A stretch of 64,000 nucleotides of DNA from Microgenomates group bacterium (GTDB lineage Bacteria; Patescibacteriota; Microgenomatia; PFEM01; JBNASD01), in assembly GCA_049720225.1 (NCBI GenBank), contig JBNASD010000001.1, positions 164,733 to 228,732 of the forward strand. Direction: 5' to 3'. A model generated the notes under the pieces. It was not told the DNA's origin and ran no database searches. It worked only from the letters and a program-made list of their open reading frames with translations. Shown here in pieces: positions 8,933-63,713 of this stretch. The position numbers and the translations under genes were made by a program. Each line of letters opens with the position of its first letter. Position 1 is the first letter of the stretch.

Positions 8933-8934
8933 TT

Positions 8935-13466: not shown

Positions 13467-13549
13467 CTTAATAATAATTTTTTTATTGTTAAATTCTGTT
13501 TTCATTATTTTTATATTATATAGCAAAAATTAAAAAGAAAAACAAGTTT

Positions 13550-26260: not shown

Positions 26261-26314
26261 TGCTTTAATTAATTAAATTAAAAAATTTATTTAATTAAAC
26301 TAATCAAAATTTTT

Positions 26315-28262: not shown

Positions 28263-28287
28263 TAATAGCTTTATTATAGCTTAATTT

Positions 28288-30003: not shown

Positions 30004-30299
30004 TTCCTTAAAGCAACTGCATTATCCTCGGTAAGATGAAAAACTACTGAAGTTTTTACTAAACCCAATTCTTCTGCTTTCTGGGAAATTTTCTTTAAAG
30101 AAGTTTCTTTGGCTAATTCTTCATTTAAAATCTTAATTTCTTCATTTAATTGACTGAGTTTAACTTGCCAATTTTTTGTTTCCGCAGATAAACTTACTAA
30201 CCAACAAGAAATTATTATCTGAAAAATAATCAAAATTCCTAAAATTAACACCGTAAATTTAAAAAAATCAAATTGTTTTTTTGTTTTTTTCTTTTTCAT
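30000..30299 (-). CDS. ftsL: FtsL-like cell division protein (single TM + coiled coil)
   Basis: 99 aa; TM segment FTVLILGILIIFQIII then a heptad-like region; canonical position between rsmH and ftsI. Confidence 0.45.
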   Translation of the reverse strand: MKKKKTKKQFDFFKFTVLILGILIIFQIIISCWLVSLSAETKNWQVKLSQLNEEIKILNEELAKETSLKKISQKAEELGLVKTSVVFHLTEDNAVALRK

Positions 30300-30300
30300 T

Positions 30301-46789: not shown

Positions 46790-48198
46790 TTAGAATCTTT
46801 TTCTAAAACCGGACAGGTTTCTATTAAACTTAAAGTAACTTCATCAAAATTTACCGCTACATAATGAGTAGCACCCTTTTTTATCAAATTAGAAATTGAT
46901 TCAGAAACTATCGGCCATCCTTTCCGATTAATTTGGTATAAAAAGGCGGTATCCCCATTATAAGGCGCAATTACCCTTGCGTTAGGAGGAAGAATTTCAT
47001 TCGCTTTCTTTCCCACCTCAATTATTTCCGGATGATTTATCTGATAAAAACCACGAATCTCATACCACGAAAAACCTAAAGAAAAAATTAAAAACACAAT
47101 TGCTAATCCCCAAGACAAAATCCAATAAAAATTTTTTGAATAATTACTAATTAAAAAATAAAAACCTTTGGCTAAAAAAACAGCCACTACAGGAAGAATA
47201 ACAATTTGATAATAATCATGCTGAATATTTCCTCGAGCAAAGACAGAAAAATAAGTAAAAATTCCCATTAACCAACTATAAAAAAGAATTTCTTTTGTAA
47301 ATTTTTTAAATCTCCAAATTATTCCTAATCCCAAAAAAACCGTTCCCCAATATCCCAAAATCAATTTTCCCAATCTTTCGGCAAAAAGCCAACGCCACCA
47401 CGCCGGTTTAAATCTAATTCCTTCTAAATTAAAAAGCCACTGATTAGCAGGAATTCCCTCGGGAAATTTTTGCATCCAAATACGCCATAACCCAAAAGGA
47501 AGTAATGAAAGAGAGGCATAAATTATTAAAAAAGGAAAATATTTTTTTCCAAAAATCACCAACCAACTAGGAAGAAGAAGAAACAAAATATAAGGTTTTG
47601 TCAAAATTGCCAATATACTCATAAATAAACTTATCAAAAAGTAGAATATTTTCTTTTTATCCTCCGAATCTACTTCTTTCCACTTTAAAAGAAAATAAAT
47701 ACTCCCCAAACCAAACATTATCATTGTTGGTTCAGGTAGGATTACTCGTGAATAAAAAATATTGAAAGGAAGAAACATAAAAAATCCAAAGGCAATTAAA
47801 GCTATCCAATCATTTAAAATTTTTTTAGTAATTAAATAAAGAAAAATTCCTCCAATCAACGAAGAAAAAATTGTTACCAGTCTCCCGGCTCCTTCAAATG
47901 AAATTAAATCTTTTTTAAACCAACCAAAAAATTCAAATAAAATGGCATGAAAAGCATTATAAAGAGGAAACTCAACAAATCGCCAACCAAAAGGATTATC
48001 TTTTCCCGAAGCAACATTAGATAAATCATCAAAACGAGGATGAAGTAAATCAATCCCCTCTTTAACAAAATTTCTAGCTACCGCCGCGGTATCTGCTTGT
48101 CGCCATGAATGCCAATCTGCTAAAGGAGAATTAATTTTATATAATCTCACCAGTAAACCAAAAAGAAGCAAAAAATATAAAACAATTTTTTTAAGCAT
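46747..48198 (-). CDS. GT-C fold polytopic membrane glycosyltransferase, ArnT/PMT_2 (GT39/83)-like (module 1)
   Basis: N-terminal loop LLVRLYKINSPLADWHSWRQADTAAVARNFVKEG resembles the ArnT/PMT first-loop Asp motif; ~11 TM; 483 aa. Confidence 0.5.
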   Translation of the reverse strand: MLKKIVLYFLLLFGLLVRLYKINSPLADWHSWRQADTAAVARNFVKEGIDLLHPRFDDLSNVASGKDNPFGWRFVEFPLYNAFHAILFEFFGWFKKDLISFEGAGRLVTIFSSLIGGIFLYLITKKILNDWIALIAFGFFMFLPFNIFYSRVILPEPTMIMFGLGSIYFLLKWKEVDSEDKKKIFYFLISLFMSILAILTKPYILFLLLPSWLVIFGKKYFPFLIIYASLSLLPFGLWRIWMQKFPEGIPANQWLFNLEGIRFKPAWWRWLFAERLGKLILGYWGTVFLGLGIIWRFKKFTKEILFYSWLMGIFTYFSVFARGNIQHDYYQIVILPVVAVFLAKGFYFLISNYSKNFYWILSWGLAIVFLIFSLGFSWYEIRGFYQINHPEIIEVGKKANEILPPNARVIAPYNGDTAFLYQINRKGWPIVSESISNLIKKGATHYVAVNFDEVTLSLIETCPVLEKDSNWVIIDLINCPSLK

Positions 48199-48210: not shown

Positions 48211-49290
48211 TTAACATTTTATTGCTTCTTCATAAACTTTTAAAGTTTCTTGAGCGGTTTTTTCCCAACTAAATCTTTTAACATTTTCTAAACCCTTTTT
48301 TATTAGTTCTTCTTTAAATTTTTTATTCTCAACTAATTTTTTTATTCCTCTTTTAATATCCCCAATCAAAAAAGGATTTACCAAAATCGCTCCCTCTCCT
48401 GCCACCTCAGGCATGCTGGAAATATTAGAAGTAATTACTGGACAACCACAGGCTTGTGCTTCTAAAATCGGCAAACCAAAACCTTCATAAGTTGAGGCAT
48501 AAATTAATCCTAAAGCTCCCTTATATAAAAACGGTAAATCTTGCTCCTCTACATATGGTTGACCAATCACAAAAAGATTAAAACCTTTTACTGCTTTTTT
48601 AATTCTTTCAAGATTTTTTCTTTTTGGTCCGGCAAAAGCTAAAAAATATTCTCCTTTAATTTTATATTTCTTCTTAATTTCCTCAATTTTGAATTTTGAA
48701 CTTTGAATTTTGAACTTTTTTAGATCTACCCCTTCATATATCACTCTTATTCTTTCATTCGGAATTCCTAAAATTTTAACAATATCTCTTTTGGTTGAGT
48801 GAGAAACAGCAATTATTAATTTACTTTCTTTTTTCACCCATTCTAATTTTCTTTGATGAACCGCTCTAATTTTTGGATGAACATCCTCGGGGTATATGAA
48901 AGGAGTTAAATCATGAATGGTGGTTACTTTAAAACATCTTGCTGGTGGTTCAAGCCAATCTGAAGTATGAAAAACATCTACCTTACCAATTAAACTTTCT
49001 ATTGGCAAAATATGAAGTTTATTCCATAAAAAGTCTAATATTGTCGGAGGAAATTTAAAATTTCTTATTTGAAAATTAGAAAATTGGAGTTTTAAAGTTG
49101 GAATTTTTTTTCTAAAAGAGGAAAAGAAAAAAATATATTCATTCTTTTTGTCTATCTTTAAAAGATTCTCTACCAAATTTTTAGTATAAACACTTACCCC
49201 CCCACCATAAACAATTTGCGAAATATCAATTCCGATTTTCATAAACCAAAAGAGGTATTTGATTAAAACTAACTTCTTTAATTTTAACAA
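48211..49290 (-). CDS. Glycosyltransferase family 4 (module 2)
   Basis: EGFGLPILEAQACGCPVITSNISSMPEVAG; paralog of the 45632 and 38842 GT4s. Carries heptamer tract 48686-48720. Confidence 0.8.
   Translation of the reverse strand: MLKLKKLVLIKYLFWFMKIGIDISQIVYGGGVSVYTKNLVENLLKIDKKNEYIFFFSSFRKKIPTLKLQFSNFQIRNFKFPPTILDFLWNKLHILPIESLIGKVDVFHTSDWLEPPARCFKVTTIHDLTPFIYPEDVHPKIRAVHQRKLEWVKKESKLIIAVSHSTKRDIVKILGIPNERIRVIYEGVDLKKFKIQSSKFKIEEIKKKYKIKGEYFLAFAGPKRKNLERIKKAVKGFNLFVIGQPYVEEQDLPFLYKGALGLIYASTYEGFGLPILEAQACGCPVITSNISSMPEVAGEGAILVNPFLIGDIKRGIKKLVENKKFKEELIKKGLENVKRFSWEKTAQETLKVYEEAIKC
48686..48720. repeat. Heptamer tandem repeat A(T/C)TTTGA x4-5 inside GT4 gene 48211..49290
   Basis: attttga attttga actttga attttga acttttt; encodes KFKIQSSKFKI at the position homologous to the KFKILNFKFKI tract of paralog 38842..39978. 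Confidence 0.6.
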
Positions 49291-50680
49291 ATCCTTCTTC
49301 TTCTAACCACCTGAGAATTTTTCTTTCCCTGTCGTAAACATCTGTTAAATAAGGAGTATAGGCTATTTTTTGTTTACTAATTTGACCAATCATCCCAATT
49401 AAACCAATTTTATCTTCTTCTTTTATTTCTCTTGCTTCCTCTACTACTCCTATTACCTGCTTTTCTACACCATAATACACTAAAGGCCAATTAAAAGCAG
49501 ATGAAGAAATTACTATTGGGATTTTTTCTTTTTTTAAGTATTCTGCCACTCCTCGCCAATCTTCTCGCCAAAAATAGGAATTAGTCCAATAAGTGAAAAC
49601 CGCTAACACATTAATTCCCAAAATCAATCCAATTATCCCCAATTTTAATTTTTTATTTTTAATCGCTAGAATTCCCTTACTTAAAATCAACAAAAAAGCG
49701 GGTAAAACCAAAATTAACCGAAAGGGTTGATAATTTGGTATTTTTAAAGAAAATAGCCACGCAACCAAAACTGGCAATAAAAACCAAATTAAAATTAATT
49801 TATATTTGTCACTTTTATAATTTTTATAAATTCCCCAACTTTCTATTCCCCCAACCAATCCTAACAATCCTAAAATTACTAAGGCATAAATTTTTTTATT
49901 AAAAATTGTGATTCTTCCCAAGGTAAACTTCACAAAAGTCAAAGGTAAAGCTTTCCAAAAATTTAAATTAACTACTGCCTTCCATTCTGGCAAATTTTGA
50001 GTTCCCGCTAATCCTTCCTTAACCTGCTGAACTATTACTGAAACCCAAGGAAGATAGAAAATAAAAATTCCTAAATAAATAGGTAAAAATTGGCTTAAAT
50101 AATTTTTTAAATTTTTCCGAAAAATAATTAATCCTCCCAAAAATTGACTCAAAATTAATAAAAATCCATAATAATCCGTATAGATTAAAAGAAGGGTGAA
50201 AATTAAATAAAAAATTTGAAATCTAAACTGAAGTTTTGCGTTTTGCGTTTTGCGCTTTGCGTTTTTTAAAATTTTTATCCACCAATACATTGAAAAAGTA
50301 GCCAAAAAACAAGCCATCGCATACATTCTTGCTTCTTGAGAGTAATAAATATGAAATTGAGATGTAGCTAAAAATAAAGCAGAAATTAAACCCCAATTTT
50401 TCCCACCAATTTTGTAAATTAAATAAATTGTTCCTATACCAAATAAAACCGAAGGTATTCGTATACTCATCTCCGACCAACCAAAAATCTTTCCCCAAAA
50501 ATGAAGCAATAAATAATATGCCGGAGGATGAAAATCACCTTTACTAAAATTACTAATTATTTCTCTTAACATTAAATCTCGAGCTACTAACGCGCTAATT
50601 GCTTCATCTAACCATAAGGATTGATTTAAATTTATTAATCGAAAAATTAAAGAAAAGCAAAGAATTAAAAAAATCCACAT
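49226..50680 (-). CDS. GT-C fold membrane glycosyltransferase, ArnT/PMT_2-like (module 2)
   Basis: First loop …NLNQSLWLDEAISALVARD (WxDE); polytopic; 484 aa. Carries TTTTGCG x4 tract 50234-50261. Confidence 0.6.
   Translation of the reverse strand: MWIFLILCFSLIFRLINLNQSLWLDEAISALVARDLMLREIISNFSKGDFHPPAYYLLLHFWGKIFGWSEMSIRIPSVLFGIGTIYLIYKIGGKNWGLISALFLATSQFHIYYSQEARMYAMACFLATFSMYWWIKILKNAKRKTQNAKLQFRFQIFYLIFTLLLIYTDYYGFLLILSQFLGGLIIFRKNLKNYLSQFLPIYLGIFIFYLPWVSVIVQQVKEGLAGTQNLPEWKAVVNLNFWKALPLTFVKFTLGRITIFNKKIYALVILGLLGLVGGIESWGIYKNYKSDKYKLILIWFLLPVLVAWLFSLKIPNYQPFRLILVLPAFLLILSKGILAIKNKKLKLGIIGLILGINVLAVFTYWTNSYFWREDWRGVAEYLKKEKIPIVISSSAFNWPLVYYGVEKQVIGVVEEAREIKEEDKIGLIGMIGQISKQKIAYTPYLTDVYDRERKILRWLEEEGFVKIKEVSFNQIPLLVYENRN
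50234..50261. repeat. Heptamer tandem repeat TTTTGCG x4 inside GT-C gene 49226..50680
   Basis: ttttgcg ttttgcg ttttgcg ctttgcg; encodes KRKTQNAK-type heptads. Confidence 0.65.
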
Positions 50681-50686: not shown

Positions 50687-51889
50687 TTACTTTTTTAAAA
50701 TTTCTTGAAAAAGCTTATAATAAGTATTCATAATTAAAGGGAGTCTATATCTACTTTCGATTTCTAATCTTGCTTTTTCTCCTATTTTTTCTCTTAATTG
50801 AGAATTGTTAATTAAAAAAGATAAAGCGGAAAATAGCGATTTAACACTTCCCGTTTTAACTAACCAACCTGTTTTTTTATGTTTAATTACTTCATTAATT
50901 CCCCCCACATTACTTCCAATTACCGCCAATCCACAACTCATTGCCTCTAATAAAGAAAATGGTGTTCCTTCGGGAAAAATTGAGGGATAAACAAAAACAT
51001 CAGAGGCTTTTAACCAATCTACTATTTCTTCCCTTCTTTTTTCTCCTAGAAAAAAAATATTTTTTTCTGATTTTTTACTCTTTTCCTTTAATATTTCTTC
51101 TACTGAATCAGGTTGATTTTTTCCCGAACCTATTAATAACAACAAAGCGTTTCTATTTTTCCTTCCCAATTTATTCCATACTTCAATAAGATTAATTAAC
51201 CCTTTCCTTTTTACTAATCTCCCACAATAAGTAACAATTATTTTTTTAAGCGGTAATCCTAATTTTTTTCTCAATTTTAATTTTTTTTCTTTTTTAAGAG
51301 GGAAAAATAGTTTATCTTCTATTCCATCAGGAATAATTTTTATTTTTTTAGAAGAAACGCCAAAAATTAGAAGTTCTTTTTTAATTTGTTTTGTTTGGGC
51401 GATGAAAAAATCCGCTTTCCTAACTATTTTTAATCTTAATTTAATTAAAGGATGAACAAATTTTTTTGGCGATAATGAATAAGGTCCGCTAAAAAAAAGT
51501 TCGCCGGGAGTGGCTACCCGACTAATCACTTTTTTTCCTAACAATTTTCCTACCAAAATAGCGGTTGATCCAAATATATTAGCTAATCCTCCATTTACAT
51601 AAACTAAATCAAAGTCATTTCTTTTTTTAAACATAAAAATAAAAAGACTTAATCCGCTAAAATAATCTTTTAATCTACCTTCTCCTGGTAATCCCAACCG
51701 AAAAACTTTAAAACCCTCTTTAAAATTTTCTTCTTTTAAAAAGCTTTTCTCCCATCTTTTGGTGGCTATATTGACTTTTATTTTTTTTCTAGATAAATAT
51801 TCAGCCAATTGCCAACACTGAGTTTCTGACCCTCCTTTTAAAGGAAAAAATCTTTCGATTACCATTAAAACGGAAAAATTTTGTTTCAT
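50687..51889 (-). CDS. Glycosyltransferase family 4 (module 3)
   Basis: MVIERFFPLKGGSETQCWQLAEYL; EGTPFSLLEAMSCGLAVIGSNVGGINEVI. Confidence 0.8.
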   Translation of the reverse strand: MKQNFSVLMVIERFFPLKGGSETQCWQLAEYLSRKKIKVNIATKRWEKSFLKEENFKEGFKVFRLGLPGEGRLKDYFSGLSLFIFMFKKRNDFDLVYVNGGLANIFGSTAILVGKLLGKKVISRVATPGELFFSGPYSLSPKKFVHPLIKLRLKIVRKADFFIAQTKQIKKELLIFGVSSKKIKIIPDGIEDKLFFPLKKEKKLKLRKKLGLPLKKIIVTYCGRLVKRKGLINLIEVWNKLGRKNRNALLLLIGSGKNQPDSVEEILKEKSKKSEKNIFFLGEKRREEIVDWLKASDVFVYPSIFPEGTPFSLLEAMSCGLAVIGSNVGGINEVIKHKKTGWLVKTGSVKSLFSALSFLINNSQLREKIGEKARLEIESRYRLPLIMNTYYKLFQEILKK

Positions 51890-53418
51890 TTAAATCCCCA
51901 TGAATAAAGCTCGATTGGCCATTTATTCCAATCTAAAGAAAACCAAGCAACTTCTTCTTTTTTTTCAAAATCTAAGTTTTTTCTTACATAGTCCACTAAA
52001 CCGGCTGGATAAAAACGAAAATTATGTTCTATAATTACTACAAAACCCTGAGGATATCTTCTTAATAATTCCTTGAATTCATCTAAATTATGGATAAAAA
52101 TACCGCCGCTATTTTCATTTATTTTCTTTTCTAAAGAAACATCGTTTCTAGGAATAAACAAATTTTTTCCTTCTCCCAAATACCAAGCAGGTATGTCATG
52201 GCTAATATCTACCAACGCTACTTCATTTATTTTCTCTCCGCTTTTTTCTTTTATTAATTTATAAATTCCTTTGTAATCTATTTCAGGAATTTCTCGCATA
52301 TCAAAATTAAGAGTGTAAAAAGATTTAGGCTTTAAAGAAAATTTGTTACCGTTAATCACTATAAATAAAATTAAAAAAATAAAAAGAACTTCTGCGGTTT
52401 TTTGTTTTTTACCTATGATTCTACTTATTTCCCATAAAGTAAATGAGGTAAGAATAAAAAAAATAGGAAACAAATTTAAAGCGTATTTTTCAAATGATAC
52501 TCCTATTAAAAAGGAAATACTAAATAAATATATAATTATAAACACCAACAAAAAATGAAATAGTTTTTTTTCATTTTTAAACCACAAAATTATTAAACCT
52601 AATAAACTTAAAAAACTAATAAGACTATATTGACGCCAAAATAAAGAATGATAATAAAAAAGAAAATTTTTATTTATATTCAAATTTAAAATTTTATCCC
52701 GAAAAACAACTTTAAAAACAGGAAAAAAATTTGTTCCAAAAAATAATAACAATATAACCCCTAATAACAGTAAAATAAAAAATTTATTTTTAATCAAAAA
52801 AGATAAAATATCTTTTCGAAAAAGAATATATATAAATCCAAAAAGAAAAATAATTAATCCTAATGTATGAACCCAAACAGAAATAAAAGCAAAAATTAAA
52901 AATAAGAATAAATTGAGTTTTCTTTTTTCTTTAACAAAAAGATAAAAATTCAATAACGCAAGAAGATAAAAAACTTCCAAAATTACATATCCCCTCGCTT
53001 GTCTTGACCAGGCAATTTGAATATAAGAAAATGTAGTTAAAGTTGCCCCTCCTAAACCAACTAATTTATTAAAAACTTTTTCTCCAAAAATATAAGTTAT
53101 TAAAATTAAAATACTTCCAAAAATTATTTCAGGAAGTCTTCCTGAAAATTCATTTACACCGAAAATTAAAAAACTTAAAGCAGTAAGATAGTGGGTAATA
53201 AAATAAGAATTTTCTTTATAGCCGGTATAAGGAATTTGGGGAAAACCAGTTTCTAAAATACCTCGAGCAAATCGAGCGGTTGATGCTTCATCAGTCCAAA
53301 AAGAATAATTTTTAGATAATCCATTTATTCTTAATAAAAAGCCAATTATTAATAAACAAAAAATTAAGATTTCGATTATATTTTTTCTTAAAAAATTTCT
53401 CATTTTTTCAAATATCAT
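51886..53418 (-). CDS. GT-C fold membrane glycosyltransferase, ArnT/PMT_2-like (module 3)
   Basis: First loop …YSFWTDEASTARFARGILETG (WxDE); polytopic; 510 aa. Confidence 0.6.
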   Translation of the reverse strand: MIFEKMRNFLRKNIIEILIFCLLIIGFLLRINGLSKNYSFWTDEASTARFARGILETGFPQIPYTGYKENSYFITHYLTALSFLIFGVNEFSGRLPEIIFGSILILITYIFGEKVFNKLVGLGGATLTTFSYIQIAWSRQARGYVILEVFYLLALLNFYLFVKEKRKLNLFLFLIFAFISVWVHTLGLIIFLFGFIYILFRKDILSFLIKNKFFILLLLGVILLLFFGTNFFPVFKVVFRDKILNLNINKNFLFYYHSLFWRQYSLISFLSLLGLIILWFKNEKKLFHFLLVFIIIYLFSISFLIGVSFEKYALNLFPIFFILTSFTLWEISRIIGKKQKTAEVLFIFLILFIVINGNKFSLKPKSFYTLNFDMREIPEIDYKGIYKLIKEKSGEKINEVALVDISHDIPAWYLGEGKNLFIPRNDVSLEKKINENSGGIFIHNLDEFKELLRRYPQGFVVIIEHNFRFYPAGLVDYVRKNLDFEKKEEVAWFSLDWNKWPIELYSWGFK

Positions 53419-54664: not shown

Positions 54665-55000
54665 TTATTTTACTTTTTCTTCTCTTAAAACTTCAAACAT
54701 CATTTGAATTACTCCTATTACCAAAAACACATATACCCAAATCGCTGATTTTTCCGCTAAAAAATCTTTTTTTAAAATCAATAAAATTGGACATAAAATC
54801 AATAATCCCAAAGCTACTTTTACCGAATCTCTTCCCTCAAATTTATAAAGTTTTATTGTTAAAATCCATAACCCCGCTAAAAATAAAATAACCAAATCAG
54901 AAATAAATTTAACCAAAAAAATATCAAATAAAATACCAAAAATAGTAAAAATTAAAATAACCAACTGATACTTTTTAATAAATTTTTTAATTTTTTTCAT
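54665..55000 (-). CDS. Small polytopic membrane protein (111 aa, 3-4 TM); possibly GtrA-like
   Basis: Hydrophobic helices only; size and context next to flippase and GT-C genes; no sequence signature. Confidence 0.3.
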   Translation of the reverse strand: MKKIKKFIKKYQLVILIFTIFGILFDIFLVKFISDLVILFLAGLWILTIKLYKFEGRDSVKVALGLLILCPILLILKKDFLAEKSAIWVYVFLVIGVIQMMFEVLREEKVK

Positions 55001-58000
55001 TTTTATTTTTTAAATTCGAAATAAAATCATATCCTAAATAACTCAGGCATCCAGCGAAAGTTAGTAAAGATATTCCCAAACCTATGTAAAAAAATCGTTG
55101 AGGCCAAAATTCAACAATTAGCTCATAATTTTCTGCTCCTCCTACATCCTCGGGAGTTATATACCACGAATTAGCGTAACCATTTACCAAATAATGTCTC
55201 TCTTCGGCAATCGATTTTTTTCCCCAAGTTTCAAAAGCGGCTGGTTCCAAAAAAGTCATTCGATGGGTTCCCTCTTTAATTTCTCCATCAAAATAACTCG
55301 CCACTTCTTCTCCATATCCCCGATTATCTAAAAACAAATCAGTAACTTTCTCTCCTATTTTTCCAATCATCCCTACAACCACATCTCTTAAGTCTTTAAA
55401 TTTTAAGTTTTGCGCTTTGCCTTTTGCGCTTTGCGCCTCTTTAAGATATATTTTCCATCCTTCATGAAAACTTTCAGAAAAAACTAAGGTATAAGGAGTT
55501 TTGGCTTCTTCTATCTTTATTTTGTACTTTGTCGGATTAACTTTTATAAAAGTAATCTTGGGAATTTGGAATTCGGAGTTTGGAATTTGAAGTCTTTTTC
55601 TTAATATTACTTTTGGTTCCCTTACTTTTTTAATCTGTAAATTTCTAAATTCTACCCTAGCAATTTTGCCTGTTTCTGGTTCGGAATAAAAATAAATTTC
55701 TGCTCCTACCGCTTCGTTATCCGCCTGAAAAACTCTCTCAAATTTTTGCCAATCATTTTCTTCTGAAAATTCCCCGCTGGTTAATTTCTTTTCAAAAATT
55801 TTTTCTTTTCTAATTCTTTCTTTTTCTTCTTCGTATATTCTTTTCTCTTCTACTATTCCTAATCCTAATCTTCCCCCTTCAGTTTTATATTCAAAACTTA
55901 AATAATAGAATTCTCCTGATTGCCAATCATTAATTGGCTGAAAAACTAAATCTTTTGCCTCTGGAAAAAATCCTTGTTTCTCAAAAAATACTCCTTCTTC
56001 TTTTGTTTCTACATCTTTCAATTTTTGCCAATCTTTTCCTACTAAATTAATTCCTTCTAGTAAATATAGTTTTAATTTATGCTCTCCTTCTTCTAACTTT
56101 ATTTTTCCCAATTCTATCCACTCTTCATTTATTTGGAAATTTTCTATTTCTATTTTTTCTCCATCTATTTCTATTTCTCCAATACCAAAATTTTCTAAAC
56201 CCTTATTTTCTTCTTTATTTGGAACTTGGATTTTGGAGTTTGGAATTTCTAAATATAGCGTATATTCTCCTTCCTTTGGTATTTCTAAGACATAATCTAA
56301 TTCATTTAAATCAAATTTTCCTTCAAATTTAGCTATTTTTTTATCTATTTCCTCAAAAGTTTCTTTCCAATTTTTAAACGTTTCAATTTTTAAATCTTTT
56401 AGTTTTTTTATCTCCTCCTGATGTCTTTCAAAATAAGCCCTCAATTTTATTATTTGCTCTTTCTTAATTTCTTGGCTTTCTAATTTTTCAACTTCTTCTC
56501 TTGTCTCCTCAAATTTTTTCTTCCATTCCTCAATTATTAACAAATTATCTATGTCATCTGTAAATTTAACCAACTCTGAGATTCTTTTTCCAGCAAAAAA
56601 TAATTTTTTATCAATTAATTTTTCAGAATTTTTTCTTACTTTCCATTCTTCATAATTTTCTTTTATTTTTGCTAGTTTCCATCCCAAACTATTTGGTTTG
56701 TGTCTTACATAAGGAAAAGACACCTTACTTTTAAAATTCTCCAATTTCTCCCAATAATCTTTATCTATTCCATTTTTCAATTCTCCTACTATTAAAATCT
56801 CATTTGCTTTTTCTAAAATTTCTCCATTCTCTAGTTTTGAGTTTTGAGTTTTGAGTTTTGAGTTTTCTAAGTATATTCCCAACCTTAATTCATCATCACT
56901 TAATTCAATAATTTCTTTTAGATTATCTGTTTTTCCATTAGAGTAGATAATGCGTTTAGAAATGTAAAAGTGTGGTAGAAAGTTTTTATCTTCAGTTTTA
57001 TAAATAGCTACTCTATCAAAATTCCTCTCTAAAATAAAAAATTTATCAATAAATGGTTTTATAAAGTAAGCAGGTCTAATATTTAAGTAAACTTTATTAG
57101 TTGACTCTTCTCTTAAAAATATATATTTAGTATTTAAAAATCCAGAAAATCTTTTCAAAAATAAAGCGAAGCTCTCTGGATTATCTAAATAAAAATAATA
57201 TAAACTGCTATTTATTTCTCTATAATTATCAAAATTAAATTTATCTAAATAATATATTGGCAAAGAAATTAATCTAGCCAAAGGATCAGCTCCTCCGTAA
57301 AGTCCACTTTCTAAATTAAGTATAATTATCCCCGGAACCTCAACAGCATTATCCGGAAGACTTAAAATTTTAAAGTTAATTTTTTGTTTTTCTAAAAAAC
57401 TTCTTATTTCTTCATAATAATTAGGAATTTTAAATCTAAATCCAGGTAAATTTTTAGTCTCTTCTCTCCATACATCACCCGTCCAGAAAGGCCATCCATA
57501 TAGATTAACTAAAAAAAAAGAGAAAAAAATAAAAATATGTTTAATATACCTTCTTTTTATCAAAAAAAGAATTAATGTTAAACTGTAACTAATCAAAATA
57601 CTATTACTTATACATATAAGAGGACCAAATTTTTCATATGCCATTCTAAACCCTTTAAAGATTAAAAATTTATTCAATAACCATTGATTTACTTGGTCAA
57701 ATGGCTCATGAATTCCCTTGCTTAGAAATATTCCTATTAAGAATACTACCCAAAAAAATAGTGTAAAATACTTAGTTTCTCTATTTTGTTTTTTTAAAAA
57801 AATTAAATTTAGAAATATTAAAAATAAAATTATAAAACTAACAAGGATAAACAACCATTTGTTATAAATAGGAGAATAAGGATAGTAAAAATCCTCTCGA
57901 TATTTTCCCCAAAACCCCCAATCTCCAAGATTACGAAATAAATTTAAAATACTTGAAAAACTACTTGATGTTACTTCTTGTTTAAATAGAACAGTTGACT

Positions 58001-58784
58001 TTATAAAATGTTGATATCCACTAAAGCTTCCTAATAAAGTAGCTAATATCCAAAAAGTAAAGATAATTCCATTAATCAAAAAAGAAATTAAAAAATATTT
58101 CAAAAAATAAATTAATTTTATTCTCTTTTTTATATTTTTTAAAAATTCTAAAAGTAAATCTAATACAATAATTACTAAAAATGGACCAATATATGCGGGA
58201 TTAGTTAGAGACGGGAGAGAAAATAAAAAAAATAAACTCATATAAAAAATGAACTTAAAATTTCGACATTCTTTTCCTTTAAACCACATCAGAATTAAAA
58301 AAGGAAAAAACGCATAAAAAAACAATCCCATTAAATAACCACTTCCCCATTTTAATTGTAATAAATATGTATTAATCATATAAAAATTAGCACCAATTAA
58401 ACCACTTATTTGTTTATGTTTAAATTCAGAAAAAGATAAAAGATATTTAATTAAAAAATATGCCCCTATTCCTGAAAAGGTAAATATTAAATAAAATAGT
58501 ATTTTTTGACATGAATATATAGAAAAACCTGTTTTAAATAATAAAAATAAAAATAAATTATAGGTAAAGATTTTAAAAGAAGCAAAATAATCCGCTCTGC
58601 CTAACTCTTGCTGGTGATCCCACCAAAATAGAGAACGAAGTAAATCATTTGGAGGATTCAAAGAAAAGTTCGTATCACCTGGATTAACTAAATATTGTCC
58701 TTTAAACCAAGAAATAGATAAAAAACCAAAAAGAAAAATAATTAAAATATAAAATATATCTTTTTCGATAATTTTCTTAACCAT
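54987..58784 (-). CDS. Giant (1265 aa) membrane protein: N-terminal ~450-aa polytopic domain (GT-C/AftD-DUF3367-like?) + ~800-aa extracytoplasmic Glu/Lys-rich domain with heptad-repeat inserts
   Basis: N-terminus MVKKIIEKDIFYILIIFLFGFLSISWFKGQYLVNPGDTNFSL… with >10 TM; C-terminal soluble region with coiled-coil-like KEE-rich stretches and a beta-rich terminal domain. Contains three heptamer tracts (55408-55435, 55561-55595, 56221-56248, 56834-56867). Confidence 0.45.
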   Translation of the reverse strand: MVKKIIEKDIFYILIIFLFGFLSISWFKGQYLVNPGDTNFSLNPPNDLLRSLFWWDHQQELGRADYFASFKIFTYNLFLFLLFKTGFSIYSCQKILFYLIFTFSGIGAYFLIKYLLSFSEFKHKQISGLIGANFYMINTYLLQLKWGSGYLMGLFFYAFFPFLILMWFKGKECRNFKFIFYMSLFFLFSLPSLTNPAYIGPFLVIIVLDLLLEFLKNIKKRIKLIYFLKYFLISFLINGIIFTFWILATLLGSFSGYQHFIKSTVLFKQEVTSSSFSSILNLFRNLGDWGFWGKYREDFYYPYSPIYNKWLFILVSFIILFLIFLNLIFLKKQNRETKYFTLFFWVVFLIGIFLSKGIHEPFDQVNQWLLNKFLIFKGFRMAYEKFGPLICISNSILISYSLTLILFLIKRRYIKHIFIFFSFFLVNLYGWPFWTGDVWREETKNLPGFRFKIPNYYEEIRSFLEKQKINFKILSLPDNAVEVPGIIILNLESGLYGGADPLARLISLPIYYLDKFNFDNYREINSSLYYFYLDNPESFALFLKRFSGFLNTKYIFLREESTNKVYLNIRPAYFIKPFIDKFFILERNFDRVAIYKTEDKNFLPHFYISKRIIYSNGKTDNLKEIIELSDDELRLGIYLENSKLKTQNSKLENGEILEKANEILIVGELKNGIDKDYWEKLENFKSKVSFPYVRHKPNSLGWKLAKIKENYEEWKVRKNSEKLIDKKLFFAGKRISELVKFTDDIDNLLIIEEWKKKFEETREEVEKLESQEIKKEQIIKLRAYFERHQEEIKKLKDLKIETFKNWKETFEEIDKKIAKFEGKFDLNELDYVLEIPKEGEYTLYLEIPNSKIQVPNKEENKGLENFGIGEIEIDGEKIEIENFQINEEWIELGKIKLEEGEHKLKLYLLEGINLVGKDWQKLKDVETKEEGVFFEKQGFFPEAKDLVFQPINDWQSGEFYYLSFEYKTEGGRLGLGIVEEKRIYEEEKERIRKEKIFEKKLTSGEFSEENDWQKFERVFQADNEAVGAEIYFYSEPETGKIARVEFRNLQIKKVREPKVILRKRLQIPNSEFQIPKITFIKVNPTKYKIKIEEAKTPYTLVFSESFHEGWKIYLKEAQSAKGKAQNLKFKDLRDVVVGMIGKIGEKVTDLFLDNRGYGEEVASYFDGEIKEGTHRMTFLEPAAFETWGKKSIAEERHYLVNGYANSWYITPEDVGGAENYELIVEFWPQRFFYIGLGISLLTFAGCLSYLGYDFISNLKNKNEKN
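55408..55435. repeat. Heptamer tandem repeat (T/C)TTTGC(G/C) x4 inside the 1265-aa gene
   Basis: ttttgcg ctttgcc ttttgcg ctttgcg; encodes AQSAKGKAQN. Confidence 0.65.
55561..55595. repeat. Heptamer tandem repeat GGA(A/G)TT(T/C) x4-5 inside the 1265-aa gene
   Basis: ggaattt ggaattc ggagttt ggaattt gaagtct; encodes LQIPNSEFQIPK. Confidence 0.65.
56221..56248. repeat. Heptamer tandem repeat GGANNTT x4 inside the 1265-aa gene (same unit family as 55561-55595)
   Basis: ggaactt ggatttt ggagttt ggaattt; encodes IPNSKIQVPN. Confidence 0.65.
56834..56867. repeat. Heptamer tandem repeat TTTTGAG x4.6 inside the 1265-aa gene
   Basis: g ttttgag ttttgag ttttgag ttttgag ttttc; encodes LKTQNSKLKTQNSKLEN. 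Confidence 0.7.
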
Positions 58785-58790: not shown

Positions 58791-59933
58791 TTATTTTAGA
58801 TTTTTAAAAATTTTATTTATTATTTTGAAAATTCTTTCTGAAGCTTTTCCATCTCCAAAAGGATTTTTAACTTTGCTCATTTTTAAATATTTTTTTTTGT
58901 TATTCAATAAGAATTCAACCTCAGATACTATTTTTTCTTTATTTGTCCCTACCAATATACCAGCTCCTATCTCAACAACTTCTGGTCTCTCCGTAGTATT
59001 TCTCAAAATCAACACTGGTTTACCTAACGAAGGCGCTTCTTCTTGAATACCTCCAGAATCACTTAAAATTAAATAACATTTTTTCATTAAATAACAAAAT
59101 GACAAATAATCTAAAGGCTTTAAAAGTTTAACGTTAGAAATTCCTTTTAAATTTCTCTTTACTGTTTCTTGAACATTAGGATTTAAATGTACAGGATAAA
59201 CAATTTCTATTTCATCTCTGTATAATTGACTTATCTCTCTTACTGCTAAACAAATATCTTCCAAAGGCTTTCCAAAGTTTTCTCTTCTATGGGCAGTAAT
59301 TAAAATTATTTTTTTTCTAAAATCAATTTTTTTAAGTTCTTTATCAAGACGTTTTCTTTTTTTAAGTGCTAAAAATAGGGCATCTATCACAGTATTTCCT
59401 ACTATAAATATTTTGTTTTTTTCAATTCCTTCCTTTATTAAATTTTCACTTGCTTTTTTAGTAGGAGCAAAATTAAAATCCGCTATATGACTAACCAAAC
59501 GTCTATTGATCTCTTCCGGAAATGGTTGATATTTATCAAAACTTCTTAATCCTGCTTCAATGTGAGCTATTTTAATTTTCTGATAATAACAAGCTAAGGC
59601 AGCAGCTAATACTGTTGTTGTATCTCCTTGAATCAATACCAAATCAGGTTTTTCTCTTATTAAGATATTTTCAATTCCTATTAGTATTTTAGAAGTAACC
59701 TCTGAAAGGGTTTGATTTGGTGTCATTACTTTTAAATTGATATCCGGAGTTATTTCAAAAGCTTCCAAGACATCATCTAACATTTCTTTATGTTGACCAG
59801 TTGAAATTATCTTTACTGAAAAAATCTTTGAATGTTTTTTAAATTCAAAAATAACAGGAGCCAATTTAATTGCTTCTGGCCTGGTACCAAAAACAAAAAA
59901 GATTTTTTTTAATTTATTTTTCTTTTTTTGCAT
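58791..59933 (-). CDS. wecB: UDP-N-acetylglucosamine 2-epimerase (non-hydrolysing)
   Basis: KIFFVFGTRPEAIKLAPVI…HIEAGLRS…; 380 aa. Confidence 0.85.
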   Translation of the reverse strand: MQKKKNKLKKIFFVFGTRPEAIKLAPVIFEFKKHSKIFSVKIISTGQHKEMLDDVLEAFEITPDINLKVMTPNQTLSEVTSKILIGIENILIREKPDLVLIQGDTTTVLAAALACYYQKIKIAHIEAGLRSFDKYQPFPEEINRRLVSHIADFNFAPTKKASENLIKEGIEKNKIFIVGNTVIDALFLALKKRKRLDKELKKIDFRKKIILITAHRRENFGKPLEDICLAVREISQLYRDEIEIVYPVHLNPNVQETVKRNLKGISNVKLLKPLDYLSFCYLMKKCYLILSDSGGIQEEAPSLGKPVLILRNTTERPEVVEIGAGILVGTNKEKIVSEVEFLLNNKKKYLKMSKVKNPFGDGKASERIFKIINKIFKNLK

Positions 59934-60567
59934 AAAAAAGAATATATAAAGCGAAATGATTTAAAAAACAGGGAAAATCTTTAATCCCTATTTCCTTTTT
60001 AAAGAAGGGAACAGAAAAACCTAACCAAATCATACTTTTGTTTTTTATTCTAAATTTGTTTATTTTTAATAAATCTTCCAGTTCTGAAGTTGTATATTCC
60101 CGAATATGAATAATTTCTCCTAAAATTGGATCTTTTCCTAACTTTCTTGGAAAATTAGGTTTTTTTCCTAATAATGAAAGAATAAAAAAAGAAATTCTAT
60201 TTCTATTTGGAGTACCCAAAATTAACATACCATTATCCTTCAAAACTCTCCAACATTCTTTTAAAAATAAATTATCGTCATCGATGTGTTCAATTACATC
60301 AAATGAAATCACAACATCAAAAAATTCTTGAGGAAATGGCATATTTAAGGCATTTCCTTTTATAAACTTAACATTTTTAATTCTCAAATTGTTTTGAAGA
60401 TCTAAACCAAAAACTTCATTGTTGTTTTTACAAAATAATTGAGTATACAATCCTGTTCCACATCCAACATCCAATATTTTTTTATTTTTAATTTTATTAG
60501 CCATTATATTAAGATGTCTTATTATTTCTCTTTGACTAGGACTTTTAATGGTGTTTATTTTCAACAT
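59914..60567 (-). CDS. Class I SAM-dependent methyltransferase
   Basis: Motif I ILDVGCGTGLYTQLF; motif II/III MLILGTPN; 217 aa. Confidence 0.75.
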   Translation of the reverse strand: MLKINTIKSPSQREIIRHLNIMANKIKNKKILDVGCGTGLYTQLFCKNNNEVFGLDLQNNLRIKNVKFIKGNALNMPFPQEFFDVVISFDVIEHIDDDNLFLKECWRVLKDNGMLILGTPNRNRISFFILSLLGKKPNFPRKLGKDPILGEIIHIREYTTSELEDLLKINKFRIKNKSMIWLGFSVPFFKKEIGIKDFPCFLNHFALYILFYAKKEK

Positions 60568-60568
60568 T

Positions 60569-61738
60569 TTAAATATTTAATTGATTTATAATTTTCACCT
60601 CATTTTTAGCTATTTTATTCCATTCGTATCTTTTTACAAATTCAAATCCTTTTTTACTAAGAAATTTTCTTTTTAATGAATTATGGAGTAGTTCTAAAAT
60701 TTTCTTAGCCATTTTACCAGTATCTCCTAACGGCGTGTAAATTACGGAATCTTTCCATACTTCTCGTAATTCCTTAAGGTCATAACAAATTACCGGTACT
60801 TTTGAAGCCAAAGCCTCGCCTATAACAATTGCCCAATTTTCTTCATAGCTTGGAAGAATAAAAATTTTTGAAGAAGCTAAAATTTTAAATTTTTTCTCAA
60901 AATCAAAAATTGGACCAAAAAAGATAATATTTTTTTCCAATTTTTTTTCTTTAATTAATGAAAGTACCTCCTTATTATCAGCACCTCCTCCTATAATTGC
61001 TAATTTTGCTTCTGGTTTGTATTTTACTACCTTCTCCCATATTTCAATTAGGTCAAAAACTCCCTTTACCGCTTGAATTCTTTTCATAAATACGGCATCG
61101 TATTTTTTATTTTTTATTTTAGAAATAACCTTTACTATATTTTTTAAATCTACCCCGCAATCTACTGCTATTACTTTATTTCTTTTTACCCCTGCCTCTA
61201 TAAGCTGTCTTTTAGTAGACTCCGAAACTGCTAATACCCTATCTGCAAAGTATTTAATTAAAAATACACTTAATCTTTCACTTATCATAAACAATAAAGA
61301 GTTCAAAAATGTTGATTTCTTTCTTTGCCAAAATTTCAAAGGAGGCATCCAATGAGCTACAGCTACCCATTTATTTTTCTTATTATTTAATTTAATTCTT
61401 ATGGCAGGAATTACATCAAACAATAATTCATTAGCGCTATAAATAACACCTTCAAAATTTTCGATTTTTATTGGTTTTAAAACCAAATAAAAAGTTAAAG
61501 CTAAAACCCAAAATCTTGAATTTCCCTCTTTAAAACCTATATTATGATTTATTACTCCTTTTAGACCAAAGTAATTACAAAATGTTTCTCCTCCTCCATT
61601 TGTCAAAAAATGAACTTCCCATCCTTTTTTTAAAAAACCCTTCATAATTTTTGCCAGTCTTACTTCTCCGCCTGTAATTCCTGATTTCATTAGTTTATTA
61701 TTAATACTAGAACTTATGAATAAAATTTTTTTTATCAT
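60569..61738 (-). CDS. GT4-like glycosyltransferase (divergent EX7E motif)
   Basis: GT-B architecture; C-terminal …PSYEENWAIVIGEALASKVPVICYD…. Confidence 0.55.
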   Translation of the reverse strand: MIKKILFISSSINNKLMKSGITGGEVRLAKIMKGFLKKGWEVHFLTNGGGETFCNYFGLKGVINHNIGFKEGNSRFWVLALTFYLVLKPIKIENFEGVIYSANELLFDVIPAIRIKLNNKKNKWVAVAHWMPPLKFWQRKKSTFLNSLLFMISERLSVFLIKYFADRVLAVSESTKRQLIEAGVKRNKVIAVDCGVDLKNIVKVISKIKNKKYDAVFMKRIQAVKGVFDLIEIWEKVVKYKPEAKLAIIGGGADNKEVLSLIKEKKLEKNIIFFGPIFDFEKKFKILASSKIFILPSYEENWAIVIGEALASKVPVICYDLKELREVWKDSVIYTPLGDTGKMAKKILELLHNSLKRKFLSKKGFEFVKRYEWNKIAKNEVKIINQLNI

Positions 61739-61841
61739 TTTATTTTAATTTTAATTTAAAACTTAAATTAAAATTTTATAAAGAAATAATTTCTCATTAA
61801 TTTTAAAAAAAGAAAAAAATACTCCCCTTTTACCCCTTTAG

Positions 61842-62057
61842 CTATTTTAGCCCATTGATTATTGACCAAAGAAAAACCAACTTTATTGGTATTCTTATAA
61901 TTTTGACTTTTAGATAATTTCTCATAACAAAATCAAAACTTTTATCATTTGAATTGTTATCAACTAAAATATTTTTATAATTTAAATTTTTAATTGAATT
62001 AAAAAACTTCTCTCCATTATAATTAACGGTAATTATTGAAACTTTCGGTTGTTTCAT
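61842..62057 (-). pseudogene. Remnant of a GT2 glycosyltransferase (N-terminal 71 aa only)
   Basis: KVSIITVNYNGEKFF…ILVDNNSNDKS…KVKIIR matches the GT2 N-terminus but ends at a stop where the NLGFxxxNNxG block should be; followed by 100 nt of non-coding A/T. Confidence 0.5.
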
Positions 62058-62076
62058 AATAATTAGTTAAAAAATT

Positions 62077-63111
62077 TTAAAATAATTTATCAAAAAACCA
62101 CTCTACTCCATTTCTATAGGGCGTATAATAAAAAGAACATAAAGGTAATTTTTTAATTTCTCCTTTTAGATGTAATTCTCTAATTCTTTGAAATTTTTTT
62201 GAATAAAAAGATTCAAGAATTCCATTTTTTAAAATGTTTCCAAAAACATATTTACCCTCGTAATCTAGACAACATAAGAAAATATCTCCTTTAACCCCAA
62301 AAACAATAGTGTTCCAAATATACTTACAGGGGTAGGGAGTTTTATTATAATTAATTTTATAACTACCAGAAACATCTTCTACAGCTCCGCCATAATTATG
62401 AACTCTATTTACACTTACTGAATCAACTAATCTTTCCCATTTTTCTATAAATTTTCTCTCCTCGCCCTCATTAGTTTTAACTAAAGTCATAGAAATTCTG
62501 ATAACCGGAATTTGACTTCTTCTCTTTCTTTTTTCTGCAATTAATTTTTTTAAATTTTTAATAGTTTTTAAATAATTTAAGCCCATCGTTTGAGTATAAC
62601 TTTTTTTATTTAAACCGTTAAAACTAATATTAATTTCATCCACTTTACTTTCAAAAATTTCTCTAATAATATAATCATTAGCCAAATTAAAATTAGAATA
62701 AAATTTAACCGGAATATTGGGAAAAAAATTTTTTAAGGTTTTAATTCTTTCAAATATTTTTTTATCTGTTAAGGGCTCTCCAAATCCGTTAATAATGAAA
62801 ACCTGCGGATTAATTTTTTCTTTTTTTATTTTTTCTAAAATTTTCAAAAATATAGAGTCTTTCATAATCTCTTTTTTTCTTTTCATGAAAAGATGAGGAC
62901 ACATAACGCACCGTGCGTTACATAAATTAGTAGTTTCTATAATTATGTTATATTTTTTTTCCTTTTTAATTTTATTTTCAACTTGATTAATTATTAAATA
63001 AACCAATTTTTTATAAAAATAATTTTCACCAATTAAATCAAAAATTTTTCTTAAAATAGGATTGATTTCAATAGCGTTTTTTATTTTTCTTATTATTTTA
63101 TTCTTCAACAT
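62077..63111 (-). CDS. Radical SAM enzyme with C-terminal SPASM/twitch-like Cys cluster
   Basis: CxxxCxxC: IIIETTNLCNARCVMCPHLF; glycine-rich SAM motif INGFGEPL; C-terminal YPCKYIW…FLCCLDYEG…LPLC. Confidence 0.7.
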   Translation of the reverse strand: MLKNKIIRKIKNAIEINPILRKIFDLIGENYFYKKLVYLIINQVENKIKKEKKYNIIIETTNLCNARCVMCPHLFMKRKKEIMKDSIFLKILEKIKKEKINPQVFIINGFGEPLTDKKIFERIKTLKNFFPNIPVKFYSNFNLANDYIIREIFESKVDEINISFNGLNKKSYTQTMGLNYLKTIKNLKKLIAEKRKRRSQIPVIRISMTLVKTNEGEERKFIEKWERLVDSVSVNRVHNYGGAVEDVSGSYKINYNKTPYPCKYIWNTIVFGVKGDIFLCCLDYEGKYVFGNILKNGILESFYSKKFQRIRELHLKGEIKKLPLCSFYYTPYRNGVEWFFDKLF

Positions 63112-63713
63112 TTATCCATTTCCTTTTTTTAAAATCATATCTTTTAATTACTTTTGCTGGAATTCCTACTGCGACGGAGTAAGGTGGAATATCTTTAGTT
63201 ACTACCGCATTAGCGCCTATTACCGAATGTCTGCCAATTCTTACATTTTTAAGAACTGAACATTTGGTTCCTAATAAAACATTATCTTCTATAATTACTT
63301 TACCTCCTTCTGTTAAAGGCTGTTGATGCAAATTTTTATTAATATCCTCAAAACCATGGTCGTGGTCGGTAATAAAAACGTAAGAAGATAAAATTGTATG
63401 CTCTCCTATTTCTATATAATTATTGGCGCTTATAAAACTATTATTACCCACATCCACATTATTACCTATTTTAATTTTTATTTTATTTTTACTTTTACAT
63501 TTTTTTTCCTCCAAATTCTTTACTAACTGTAATTCTGCAAAAAGAACCAATATTAACATTTTCCCCTATTGATATTTCTTTAGGATGAGAAGTATTTAGA
63601 AACGGTTTAATTATTGAACCTTTTCCAAAATAATAAAATTTTCTTTTTAAGAAAAGAGTATAAAGCTTTATTAAAAAAGAAAAAAATTTATTCATTTTTG
63701 AATTTTTACACAA
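63098..63713 (-). pseudogene. Hexapeptide-repeat acetyltransferase interrupted by a +1 frameshift in an A8 (coding-strand) homopolymer at ~63503-63510
   Basis: Track ORFs 63495..63713 (…ISIGENVNIGSFCRITVSKEFGGKKM*) and 63098..63559 (…IGNNVDVGNNSFISANNYIEIGEHT…VIGANAVVTKDIPPYSVAVGIPAKVIK) are the N- and C-terminal parts of one LbH acetyltransferase in different frames; removing one A restores …SKEFGGKKCKSKNKIKIKIGNNVDVG…. Confidence 0.6.

Follow-up and report, generated by a model that had tools for sequence, protein, structure and literature searches.

A radical-SAM gene inside a glycan locus

The window analysed here comprises 64,000 nucleotides of a Microgenomates genome, a member of the candidate phyla radiation (CPR). 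Its G+C content lies between 25 and 36%, and all genes from about 8 kb to the window end are carried on the minus strand. A large Wzx/Wzy-type glycan locus spans 34064 to beyond 64000, where it runs off the window edge; its boundary is not reached, and position 64000 ends the window, not the locus. Close to this edge lies a gene for a radical S-adenosylmethionine (SAM) enzyme with a twitch domain, which we call TwrSAM (for twitch-domain radical-SAM enzyme, a name coined in this analysis). Sequence comparison places TwrSAM in a large unnamed family whose members, in our reading, probably tailor surface sugars. Along the minus strand the surrounding genes follow one another as the 3′ end of a methyltransferase gene, an acetyltransferase gene, TwrSAM, the remnant of a family 2 glycosyltransferase (GT2) gene, a family 4 glycosyltransferase (GT4) gene, a second methyltransferase gene and a gene for UDP-N-acetylglucosamine (UDP-GlcNAc) 2-epimerase (Table 1).

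Table 1 Features of the window, with positions counted from its first letter
Feature	Position	Strand	Evidence
DUF4012 gene, far end of the glycan locus	34064-36022	-	Pfam
Three paralogous PMT_2-type GT-C membrane transferases	46747-48198, 49226-50680, 51886-53418	-	
UDP-N-acetylglucosamine 2-epimerase	58791-59933	-	Pfam Epimerase_2, E = 3e-125
Second class I SAM methyltransferase, 217 aa, intact	59914-60567	-	Pfam Methyltransf_11, E = 3.8e-22
GT4 glycosyltransferase, 389 aa, intact	60569-61738	-	Pfam Glycos_transf_1, E = 1.9e-27
GT2 remnant, 71 codons, N-terminal ~67 residues of a GT2	61842-62057	-	Pfam Glycos_transf_2, E = 0.0025
TwrSAM, 344 aa: N-terminal three-helix extension (1-51), radical-SAM core and predicted BtrN-type twitch domain	62077-63111	-	Pfam, PDB profile search, AlphaFold2, Foldseek
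Predicted twitch-domain cluster motif C262-x12-G275-x4-C280(C281)...C325-x2-Y328	62128-62328	-	Sequence; alignment to homologues and BtrN
C64-x3-C68-x2-C71 codons (motif LCNARCVMC), predicted ligands of the SAM-binding [4Fe-4S] cluster	62899-62922	-	Sequence; invariant in 111/111 full-length homologues
Single gene for a predicted hexapeptide-repeat sugar O-acetyltransferase (LacA/Maa/WbbJ-like), +1 frameshift	63098-63713	-	Pfam Hexapep, E = 3.8e-14; two-frame tblastn
Class I SAM methyltransferase (~225 aa), truncated by the window edge to its C-terminal ~100 residues	63692-64000	-	tblastn

TwrSAM has a predicted one-cluster twitch domain like that of BtrN

A preliminary description of this DNA had placed a radical-SAM enzyme with a CxxxCxxC motif at the distal end of the glycan locus. 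As the locus continues past the window edge, the label 'distal end' goes too far; the enzyme itself is borne out by the motif LCNARCVMC, by the Pfam Radical_SAM match (PF04055; E = 6.8e-10, 39.8 bits against a cut-off of 29.5) and by more than 147 homologues, which reach E = 1e-159 without the window's own sequence, far beyond chance. An NCBI entry from a Microgenomates-group metagenome-assembled genome, on a contig of 466,595 bp, has the TwrSAM protein at 100% identity. The Pfam SPASM model is matched as well (E = 8.5e-9, 36 bits, cut-off 21.5). In the NCBIfam scan all 20 listed families, including those for mycofactocin, HxsC, NirJ2 and AhbD, lay far below their curated cut-offs, the best score being that of the tungsten-cofactor maturase TIGR04317 (85.4 bits against 380). 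Nor does TwrSAM fall into a housekeeping family such as MoaA, an outcome that the preliminary description had allowed for: the two MoaA models gave 28.9 bits against a cut-off of 231 and 21.4 bits against 284.

The AlphaFold2 model of TwrSAM has a predicted local distance difference test score (pLDDT) of 94.9. Strands and helices alternate over residues 53–236 of the model, consistent with a partial (β/α)6 barrel, and the top Foldseek matches are all radical-SAM structures. Residues 1–51 are modelled as three basic, amphipathic helices with no β-sheet, their amphipathicity being weakly above that of shuffled controls. Pfam finds no B12-binding domain (PF02310) in TwrSAM, which thus lacks this feature of the cobalamin-dependent methylases; among its relatives, B12-binding radical-SAM enzymes are encoded by separate neighbour genes.

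Exactly eight cysteine columns are conserved in the 111 full-length homologues, three in the core (C64, C68 and C71) and five in the C-terminal domain (C262, C280, C281, C325 and C328), and 130 of the 147 sequences that were aligned (146 representatives and the window copy) show the full set. The family motif of the C-terminal domain reads C262-x12-G275-x4-C280...C325-x2-C328, with strands 268–271 and 276–278 of the model lying between C262 and C280. C281 is a spare cysteine beside the putative ligand C280; 8 of the 147 sequences have N, S, M, G or D in its place. The SPASM subclass, with two auxiliary clusters, has the seven-cysteine motif CX9-15GX4C-gap-CX2CX5CX3C-gap-C (PMC6231123), whereas a twitch domain, as set against SPASM, binds one auxiliary cluster (PMC6231123, PMC9012708). 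In the TwrSAM family the CX5CX3C...C part, which holds the ligands of the second cluster, is absent after CX2C, and most members have five cysteines in the domain. By these published definitions the C-terminal domain is thus predicted to be a one-cluster, BtrN-type twitch domain rather than a full SPASM domain; its match to the Pfam SPASM model comes about because that model also covers twitch domains. The Cys-rich C-terminal region described earlier as 'SPASM/twitch-like' is indeed present, with C262, C280, C281 and C325, but the SPASM label does not hold, only CX12GX4C and CX2C being conserved.

The closest solved relative of TwrSAM is BtrN, the 2-deoxy-scyllo-inosamine (DOIA) dehydrogenase of butirosin biosynthesis (PDB 4M7T). 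Against the PDB, the single TwrSAM sequence finds BtrN at E = 2e-8 and the family profile finds it at E = 5e-22, the next entry being anSME at 1e-6; BtrN is also the best Foldseek match of the model (4m7t, E = 7e-16, TM-score 0.75 normalised to BtrN). In single-sequence and profile alignments the four family cysteines C262, C280, C325 and C328 all align on BtrN cysteines, and the auxiliary cluster of BtrN is ligated by four cysteines. Common to both are thus the radical-SAM core and a predicted one-cluster twitch domain, in which CX12-13GX4C...CX2C is aligned cysteine for cysteine. The substrate of BtrN is carbohydrate-like. Unlike BtrN, the TwrSAM family has the N-terminal three-helix segment (51 residues), the spare C281 and a methyltransferase partner; it occurs in surface-glycan loci of CPR bacteria and DPANN archaea, whereas BtrN belongs to an aminoglycoside antibiotic cluster, and the window copy, unlike BtrN, is without the fourth ligand. 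Neither the identity (~17%) nor the neighbourhood, which holds glycosyltransferases, Wzx and Wzy and no aminoglycoside genes, is that of a BtrN orthologue acting as a DOIA dehydrogenase.

More distant comparisons can be drawn with anSME, SuiB, CteB and PqqE, which belong to the same superfamily branch and have the Pfam SPASM match in common with TwrSAM. Like the reaction that we propose below for TwrSAM, that of anSME is a two-electron oxidation in which a cluster serves as electron sink. However, anSME and the SPASM peptide maturases have two auxiliary clusters, the seven-cysteine motif, peptide or protein substrates and often a recognition element (RRE) of the kind found with peptides that are made on the ribosome and modified after translation (RiPPs), none of which we see in TwrSAM.

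Close relatives lie among glycan genes

Genome loci of TwrSAM homologues were numbered from L001 onwards. Neighbourhoods were annotated for six homologues, 42–61% identical to TwrSAM, and a wider survey took in 80 loci from species-representative genomes, in which called open reading frames (ORFs) were labelled by profiles built from the annotated neighbours. The scorable sets were 35 close loci (31–56% identical; CPR bacteria and DPANN archaea) and 23 distant loci (about 30%, mostly Acidobacteriota).

Comparison with relatives, which the preliminary description had proposed as a check, shows that the glycan context is conserved in the close clades. Five of the six annotated neighbourhoods are dominated by genes for GT2, GT4, class I methyltransferases, hexapeptide transferases, B12-binding radical-SAM enzymes and ABC-2 transporters. 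A GT2 or GT4 gene lies within three genes in 32 of the 35 close loci, and a glycan-type gene is directly adjacent in 30 of them. The gene order of the window (methyltransferase, acetyltransferase, TwrSAM, GT4) is found again in L005, where the TwrSAM homologue, 61% identical, spans 7841–8875 and the methyltransferase 6569–7249, and a block that recurs in CPR genomes runs GT-C, GT2, GT4, GT2, B12-radical-SAM, GT2, GT2, acetyltransferase, TwrSAM, methyltransferase. Among the 11 distinct loci that are at least 52% identical, a methyltransferase is at most two genes away in 9, and a hexapeptide transferase at most three genes away in 7.

Other radical-SAM genes are frequent in these surroundings. 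Those with a B12-binding domain recur in the CPR/DPANN glycan loci L001, L005, L007, L008, L026, L029, L033 and L034, at a density that seems unusual (up to five per 20 kb in L029, four in L033). Some CPR/DPANN glycan loci carry a second twitch radical-SAM paralogue; in L001, whose TwrSAM homologue lies at 8001–9023, a shorter one (312 aa, 15369–16307) is directly followed by a class I methyltransferase gene (16314–16952), so that the pair is repeated in one locus. L001 (4446–4691) and L002 (1083–1328) also contain, within the glycan locus and between a radical-SAM gene and GT2 genes, an 81-aa ORF of PF05635, the 23S rRNA intervening-sequence protein family.

Different surroundings were seen further afield. 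In a 2.05 Mb Spirochaetota contig (L003/L012) the match, at 8001–9026, has a MatE-family gene on one side and MerR/MFS genes on the other, with a DDE transposase and ankyrin-repeat genes close by; this copy is probably a horizontally acquired orphan. In L064, L071, L076, L080, L083 and L084, from Vicinamibacteria and related Acidobacteriota (~30% identical), a conserved ORF of ~320 aa and one of 600–700 aa lie upstream, about 1 kb before position 10001 in L064, L071, L080, L083 and L084 and before the match in L076. A B12-radical-SAM gene is often nearby in the same loci, which contain no glycosyltransferases, and this suggests a different subfamily context for the distant members in Acidobacteriota.

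A large family with fusions to polysaccharide-tailoring domains

A profile search of 1.84 billion representative proteins, clustered at 50% identity, matched 3,933 clusters at E ≤ 1e-30 and 24,271 at E ≤ 1e-10. By our rescaling of its PDB E-value, BtrN, with 81 bits, would miss the 1e-30 threshold in a database of that size. In the literature library that we searched for radical-SAM or SPASM enzymes in glycan, polysaccharide or CPR contexts, we found no description of the family.

Domain fusions were sought among the best 150 profile matches. The twitch radical-SAM enzyme is fused to a class I methyltransferase in P0183, P0231 and P0260, to a TupA-like ATP-grasp domain in P0226 and P0232, to a GT2 in P0247 and to a GNAT acetyltransferase in P0213, while P0262 combines it in one protein with a polysaccharide pyruvyl transferase, a methyltransferase, a polysaccharide deacetylase and an FkbM methyltransferase. 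All identified fusion partners are polysaccharide-tailoring domains. The eight-cysteine signature is kept in all fusion proteins save P0232, which ends before the last two cysteines, and the methyltransferase domains of P0231 and P0260 share 55% identity with the methyltransferase beside TwrSAM in L054. As the fusion proteins are more distant members (about 230–250 bits against the profile), carrying this evidence over to the clade of the window is itself a step of inference.

The genes beside TwrSAM

The preliminary description had counted two acetyltransferases next to TwrSAM. The ORFs 63098–63559 and 63495–63713 are in fact one gene, which overlaps the TwrSAM start by 14 nt and is split by an extra base in the 8-base homopolymer 63500–63507. 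In tblastn, residues 1–64 of intact homologues (187–201 aa) align to 63695–63507 and residues 80–197 to 63457–63107 in a different frame, and removing one base from the homopolymer gives a 198-aa protein colinear with the homologues (...SKEFGGKKCKSKNKIKIKIGNN... in the repaired protein, ...STEFGGFKCKSKRKIRLKIGNH... in its L005 counterpart). In the PDB the acetyltransferase is matched best by galactoside and maltose O-acetyltransferases. With the reading frame broken, the WbbJ model meets a C-terminal fragment only (positions 63–191 of 192, 105 bits against a cut-off of 243). Phase variation at the homopolymer was considered and is not favoured: the 64 kb contain 59 similar runs, of which none exceeds nine bases and 49 fall within intact ORFs (150 aa or more).

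The methyltransferase gene cut by the window end is 46–57% identical to the methyltransferase gene found at most two genes from TwrSAM in L005, L010, L011, L013, L015 and L016 (57% to L005). Judged by this similarity it is the conserved partner of TwrSAM, orthologous to that of the relatives. Beyond the window end, the assembly index had no record of the window's own protein, and a 35-mer from the window end had no exact match among the scanned metagenome contigs. The intact methyltransferase further along the strand has best matches of 27–38% identity in the relatives, none of them adjacent to TwrSAM save in L058, and is hence not the conserved partner. The link between the radical enzyme and methyl and acetyl transfer that had been drawn previously is thus real, but the methyl partner is the gene at the edge and not the one at 59914–60567.

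The other neighbours are as first described, a class I methyltransferase, a GT4 and a GT2 remnant, on the evidence of Pfam, tblastn and a GT2 profile. In L005 a GT4, likewise of 389 aa, comes directly after TwrSAM, and GT4 genes ~30% identical to that of the window lie two genes downstream of TwrSAM in L011 and L015 (tblastn). The GT2 remnant is 45% identical to residues 1–62 of a 344-aa GT2 in L001 (tblastn); on a GT2 profile made from the relatives' genes its match covers the first 67 of 318 positions (E = 1.3e-11 in a three-sequence search). Full GT2 enzymes have ~320–340 aa; the rest of the gene is deleted, 103 nt being left before the GT4 gene. A frameshifted continuation read by eye in another frame (NKVGFS...AKG..GEY) found no support from the GT2 profile.

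Proposed function of the family

The TwrSAM family probably consists of twitch-domain radical-SAM enzymes that tailor surface sugars by radical hydrogen abstraction, giving oxidation or epimerisation, beside a partner methyltransferase. A sugar- or glycan-modifying role had been among the suggestions of the preliminary description, and it is supported by the conserved neighbourhood, by the fusions to polysaccharide-tailoring enzymes and by BtrN as the closest solved relative. We infer with good support that the enzyme acts on a sugar, be it nucleotide-bound, lipid-linked or a glycan residue, and not on a peptide, because the relatives are almost always found among, or fused to, polysaccharide-tailoring enzymes. 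The nature of the reaction is less well supported; by analogy with BtrN it may be an oxidation or an epimerisation.

In the mechanism that we propose, the [4Fe-4S] cluster of the CxxxCxxC motif would cleave SAM to give a 5′-deoxyadenosyl radical. This radical would abstract hydrogen from a sugar carbon, a carbinol carbon if the reaction is BtrN-like; the sugar could be bound to a nucleotide or to a polyprenyl carrier, or already belong to the growing glycan. The single auxiliary [4Fe-4S] cluster, held in the family by C262, C280, C325 and C328, would then accept an electron. A keto-sugar would result or, should the radical or ketone be reduced again from the opposite face, an epimer. The partner class I methyltransferase and, in the closest clade, the predicted sugar O-acetyltransferase would act alongside, so that a modified, methylated and acetylated sugar of the surface glycan results.

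Two enzymes of antibiotic pathways offer a likeness, by description only. [quoted passage not shown] Both are radical-SAM enzymes that act on sugar carbons, as proposed for TwrSAM, but in a different kind of pathway. Since dehydrogenase activity appears upon a single-cysteine mutation, that title shows oxidation and epimerisation to be close alternatives for enzymes of this kind.

Several points weigh against the role proposed for the family. None of its members has been studied experimentally, and function in this subclass is not predictable from sequence similarity (PMC6231123). Identity between TwrSAM and BtrN is ~17%. A glycosyltransferase is nearby in 1 of the 23 distant loci, whose neighbourhood is a different one, and the Spirochaetota relative has no glycan genes nearby although it is 54% identical. 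The link to methyl and acetyl transfer is partial: within three genes, a methyltransferase is found in 15 and a hexapeptide transferase in 5 of the 35 close loci. Pfam reveals no aminotransferase or ketoreductase in the window module that could use a keto-sugar. Finally, the window copy, which is without C328, may be inactive or work differently.

Alternative explanations

Many radical-SAM/SPASM enzymes are peptide maturases, and with its Pfam SPASM match and weak partial matches to peptide-maturase NCBIfam models TwrSAM might be taken for a RiPP maturase whose substrate is a small precursor peptide, in line with the peptide-modifying role that had been offered at the outset as the other option. 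We consider this extremely improbable. The NCBIfam matches are far below cut-off (GrrM, for example, at 22.6 bits against 310), and an RRE-like peptide-recognition domain is absent from the Pfam and NCBIfam scans, residues 1–51 forming three helices in the model. The flanks 61739–61841 and 62058–62076 hold no free-standing small ORF, as the preliminary description had already stated; on its other side TwrSAM overlaps the acetyltransferase gene, and in the relatives the flanking gaps have medians of 19 and 3 nt and are both below 150 nt in 36 of 39 loci. A protein target, with oxidation of Ser or Cys as in anSME or an epimerised or cross-linked residue of a surface glycoprotein as the product, is improbable too. 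It would fit the presence of anSME, SuiB, CteB and EpeE among the fold matches and of PMT-type transferases, which glycosylate proteins in other organisms, in the locus. However, one auxiliary cluster is predicted where anSME has two, the profile search ranks anSME far below BtrN, the fusions are with sugar-tailoring domains, and neither a sulfatase nor another candidate substrate gene is conserved nearby in the relatives. Greater weight, although we still regard it as unlikely, goes to a sugar or glycan target with other radical chemistry, such as decarboxylation (BlsE), dehydration or deamination (DesII), C–C bond formation, or priming of a carbon for methylation by the partner to give a branched or C-methyl sugar. 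BlsE and DesII appear weakly among the sequence or fold matches, repeated fusion or adjacency to a class I methyltransferase suggests chemical coupling, and C281 could be a hydrogen donor. Against this, about 15 orders of magnitude separate BtrN from the next solved enzyme, the partner methyltransferases match the generic Methyltransf_11/23/25 with no sugar C-methyltransferase family among the listed matches, and C281 is not essential, given its replacement in some members.

An explanation of another kind concerns the window genome and is compatible with sugar tailoring by the family as a whole: TwrSAM, or the entire module of methyltransferase, acetyltransferase, TwrSAM and GT2, might here be a decaying, functionless remnant. 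We lean against this, less firmly than against other radical chemistry. Three lesions lie within 2 kb, namely the frameshift in the overlapping upstream acetyltransferase gene, the truncation of the GT2 directly downstream to about 70 residues, and a substitution in TwrSAM itself, whose residue 328 is Tyr (codon TAT at 62130–62128; C328Y). Cys328 is present in 110 of 111 close homologues and in every aligned representative that reaches the position (147 aligned sequences), the window copy being the sole exception among about 250 family members, so the four-cysteine ligand set of a BtrN-type twitch domain is not complete in the window protein. The module therefore appears partly degraded. However, C328Y is the only departure of TwrSAM from the consensus in 46 highly conserved columns, which argues against general decay, and the ORF keeps its full length. 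Function need not be lost, because a three-cysteine auxiliary cluster with an open iron site works in MoaA (GTP 3′,8-cyclase), a twitch enzyme that the C328Y copy formally resembles, although the TwrSAM family has four putative ligands and no molybdenum-cofactor context. The lesions may reflect real decay of the module or assembly errors; C328Y and the frameshift are single-base events in a metagenome-assembled genome, and most homopolymers similar to that of the acetyltransferase gene (49 of 59) lie inside intact ORFs.

The remainder of the glycan locus

Pfam scans of the locus from 34064 to 64000 identified DUF4012, a priming sugar transferase, ManC, GT4 and GT2 genes, Wzy, Wzx, three PMT_2-type GT-C enzymes and the UDP-GlcNAc 2-epimerase. 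The epimerase suggests that the glycan contains ManNAc-type sugars. Further downstream of it follow a 1265-aa membrane protein, the Wzx-type flippase, the three GT-C enzymes and more GT4/GT2 genes, together with the Wzy-like gene, another hexapeptide transferase and the ManC, priming sugar transferase and DUF4012 genes. The three GT-C enzymes imply that lipid-linked sugar donors are used outside the membrane. The 1265-aa protein (54987–58784, minus strand) has a strongly hydrophobic N-terminal part, as read by eye from the translation, and a long Lys/Glu-rich middle; it has no Pfam or NCBIfam match, including a test for GT-C/AftD similarity by Pfam. In L005 a 1123-aa protein, also without a Pfam match, adjoins the same module (10358–13729, minus strand). 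Two further minus-strand ORFs of the locus, 44443–45033 (196 aa) and 54665–55000 (111 aa), have no Pfam match.

On the same strand, a cell-division and peptidoglycan cluster occupies 23958–31272 and encodes MraW, a penicillin-binding protein, two Mur ligases and MurB, with a PF02578 Cu-oxidase_4 protein inside it. Between this cluster and the glycan locus lie genes for RecO and a class II tRNA synthetase and an unannotated 170-aa ORF.

Implications

A bolder version of the sugar-tailoring proposal can be put forward, as a speculation to which we give rather low odds. The TwrSAM family and its partner methyltransferase could form a widespread, undescribed two-enzyme module. By radical chemistry, and with no need of oxidoreductases that depend on oxygen, flavin or NAD, strictly anaerobic bacteria and archaea of ultra-small size would use it to produce a rare sugar of keto, epimeric or branched type. 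A sugar linked to polyprenyl phosphate and supplied to the many GT-C enzymes of these loci might serve as the substrate; the basic amphipathic helices at the N terminus would in that case anchor the enzyme to the membrane. Lipid-linked sugars are epimerised by DprE1/DprE2, and the module would be a radical-SAM counterpart of that system.

To our knowledge, the radical-SAM enzymes that act on sugars come almost entirely from antibiotic pathways. The closest members of the TwrSAM family are found in surface-glycan loci of CPR bacteria and DPANN archaea, often beside several B12-dependent radical-SAM genes. The window copy is of lower value than the family, as it may be defective. If sugar oxidation or epimerisation is indeed what the family carries out, the surfaces of these uncultured symbionts would bear sugars made by radical chemistry, and the family would represent oxygen-independent catalysts for rare-sugar synthesis.

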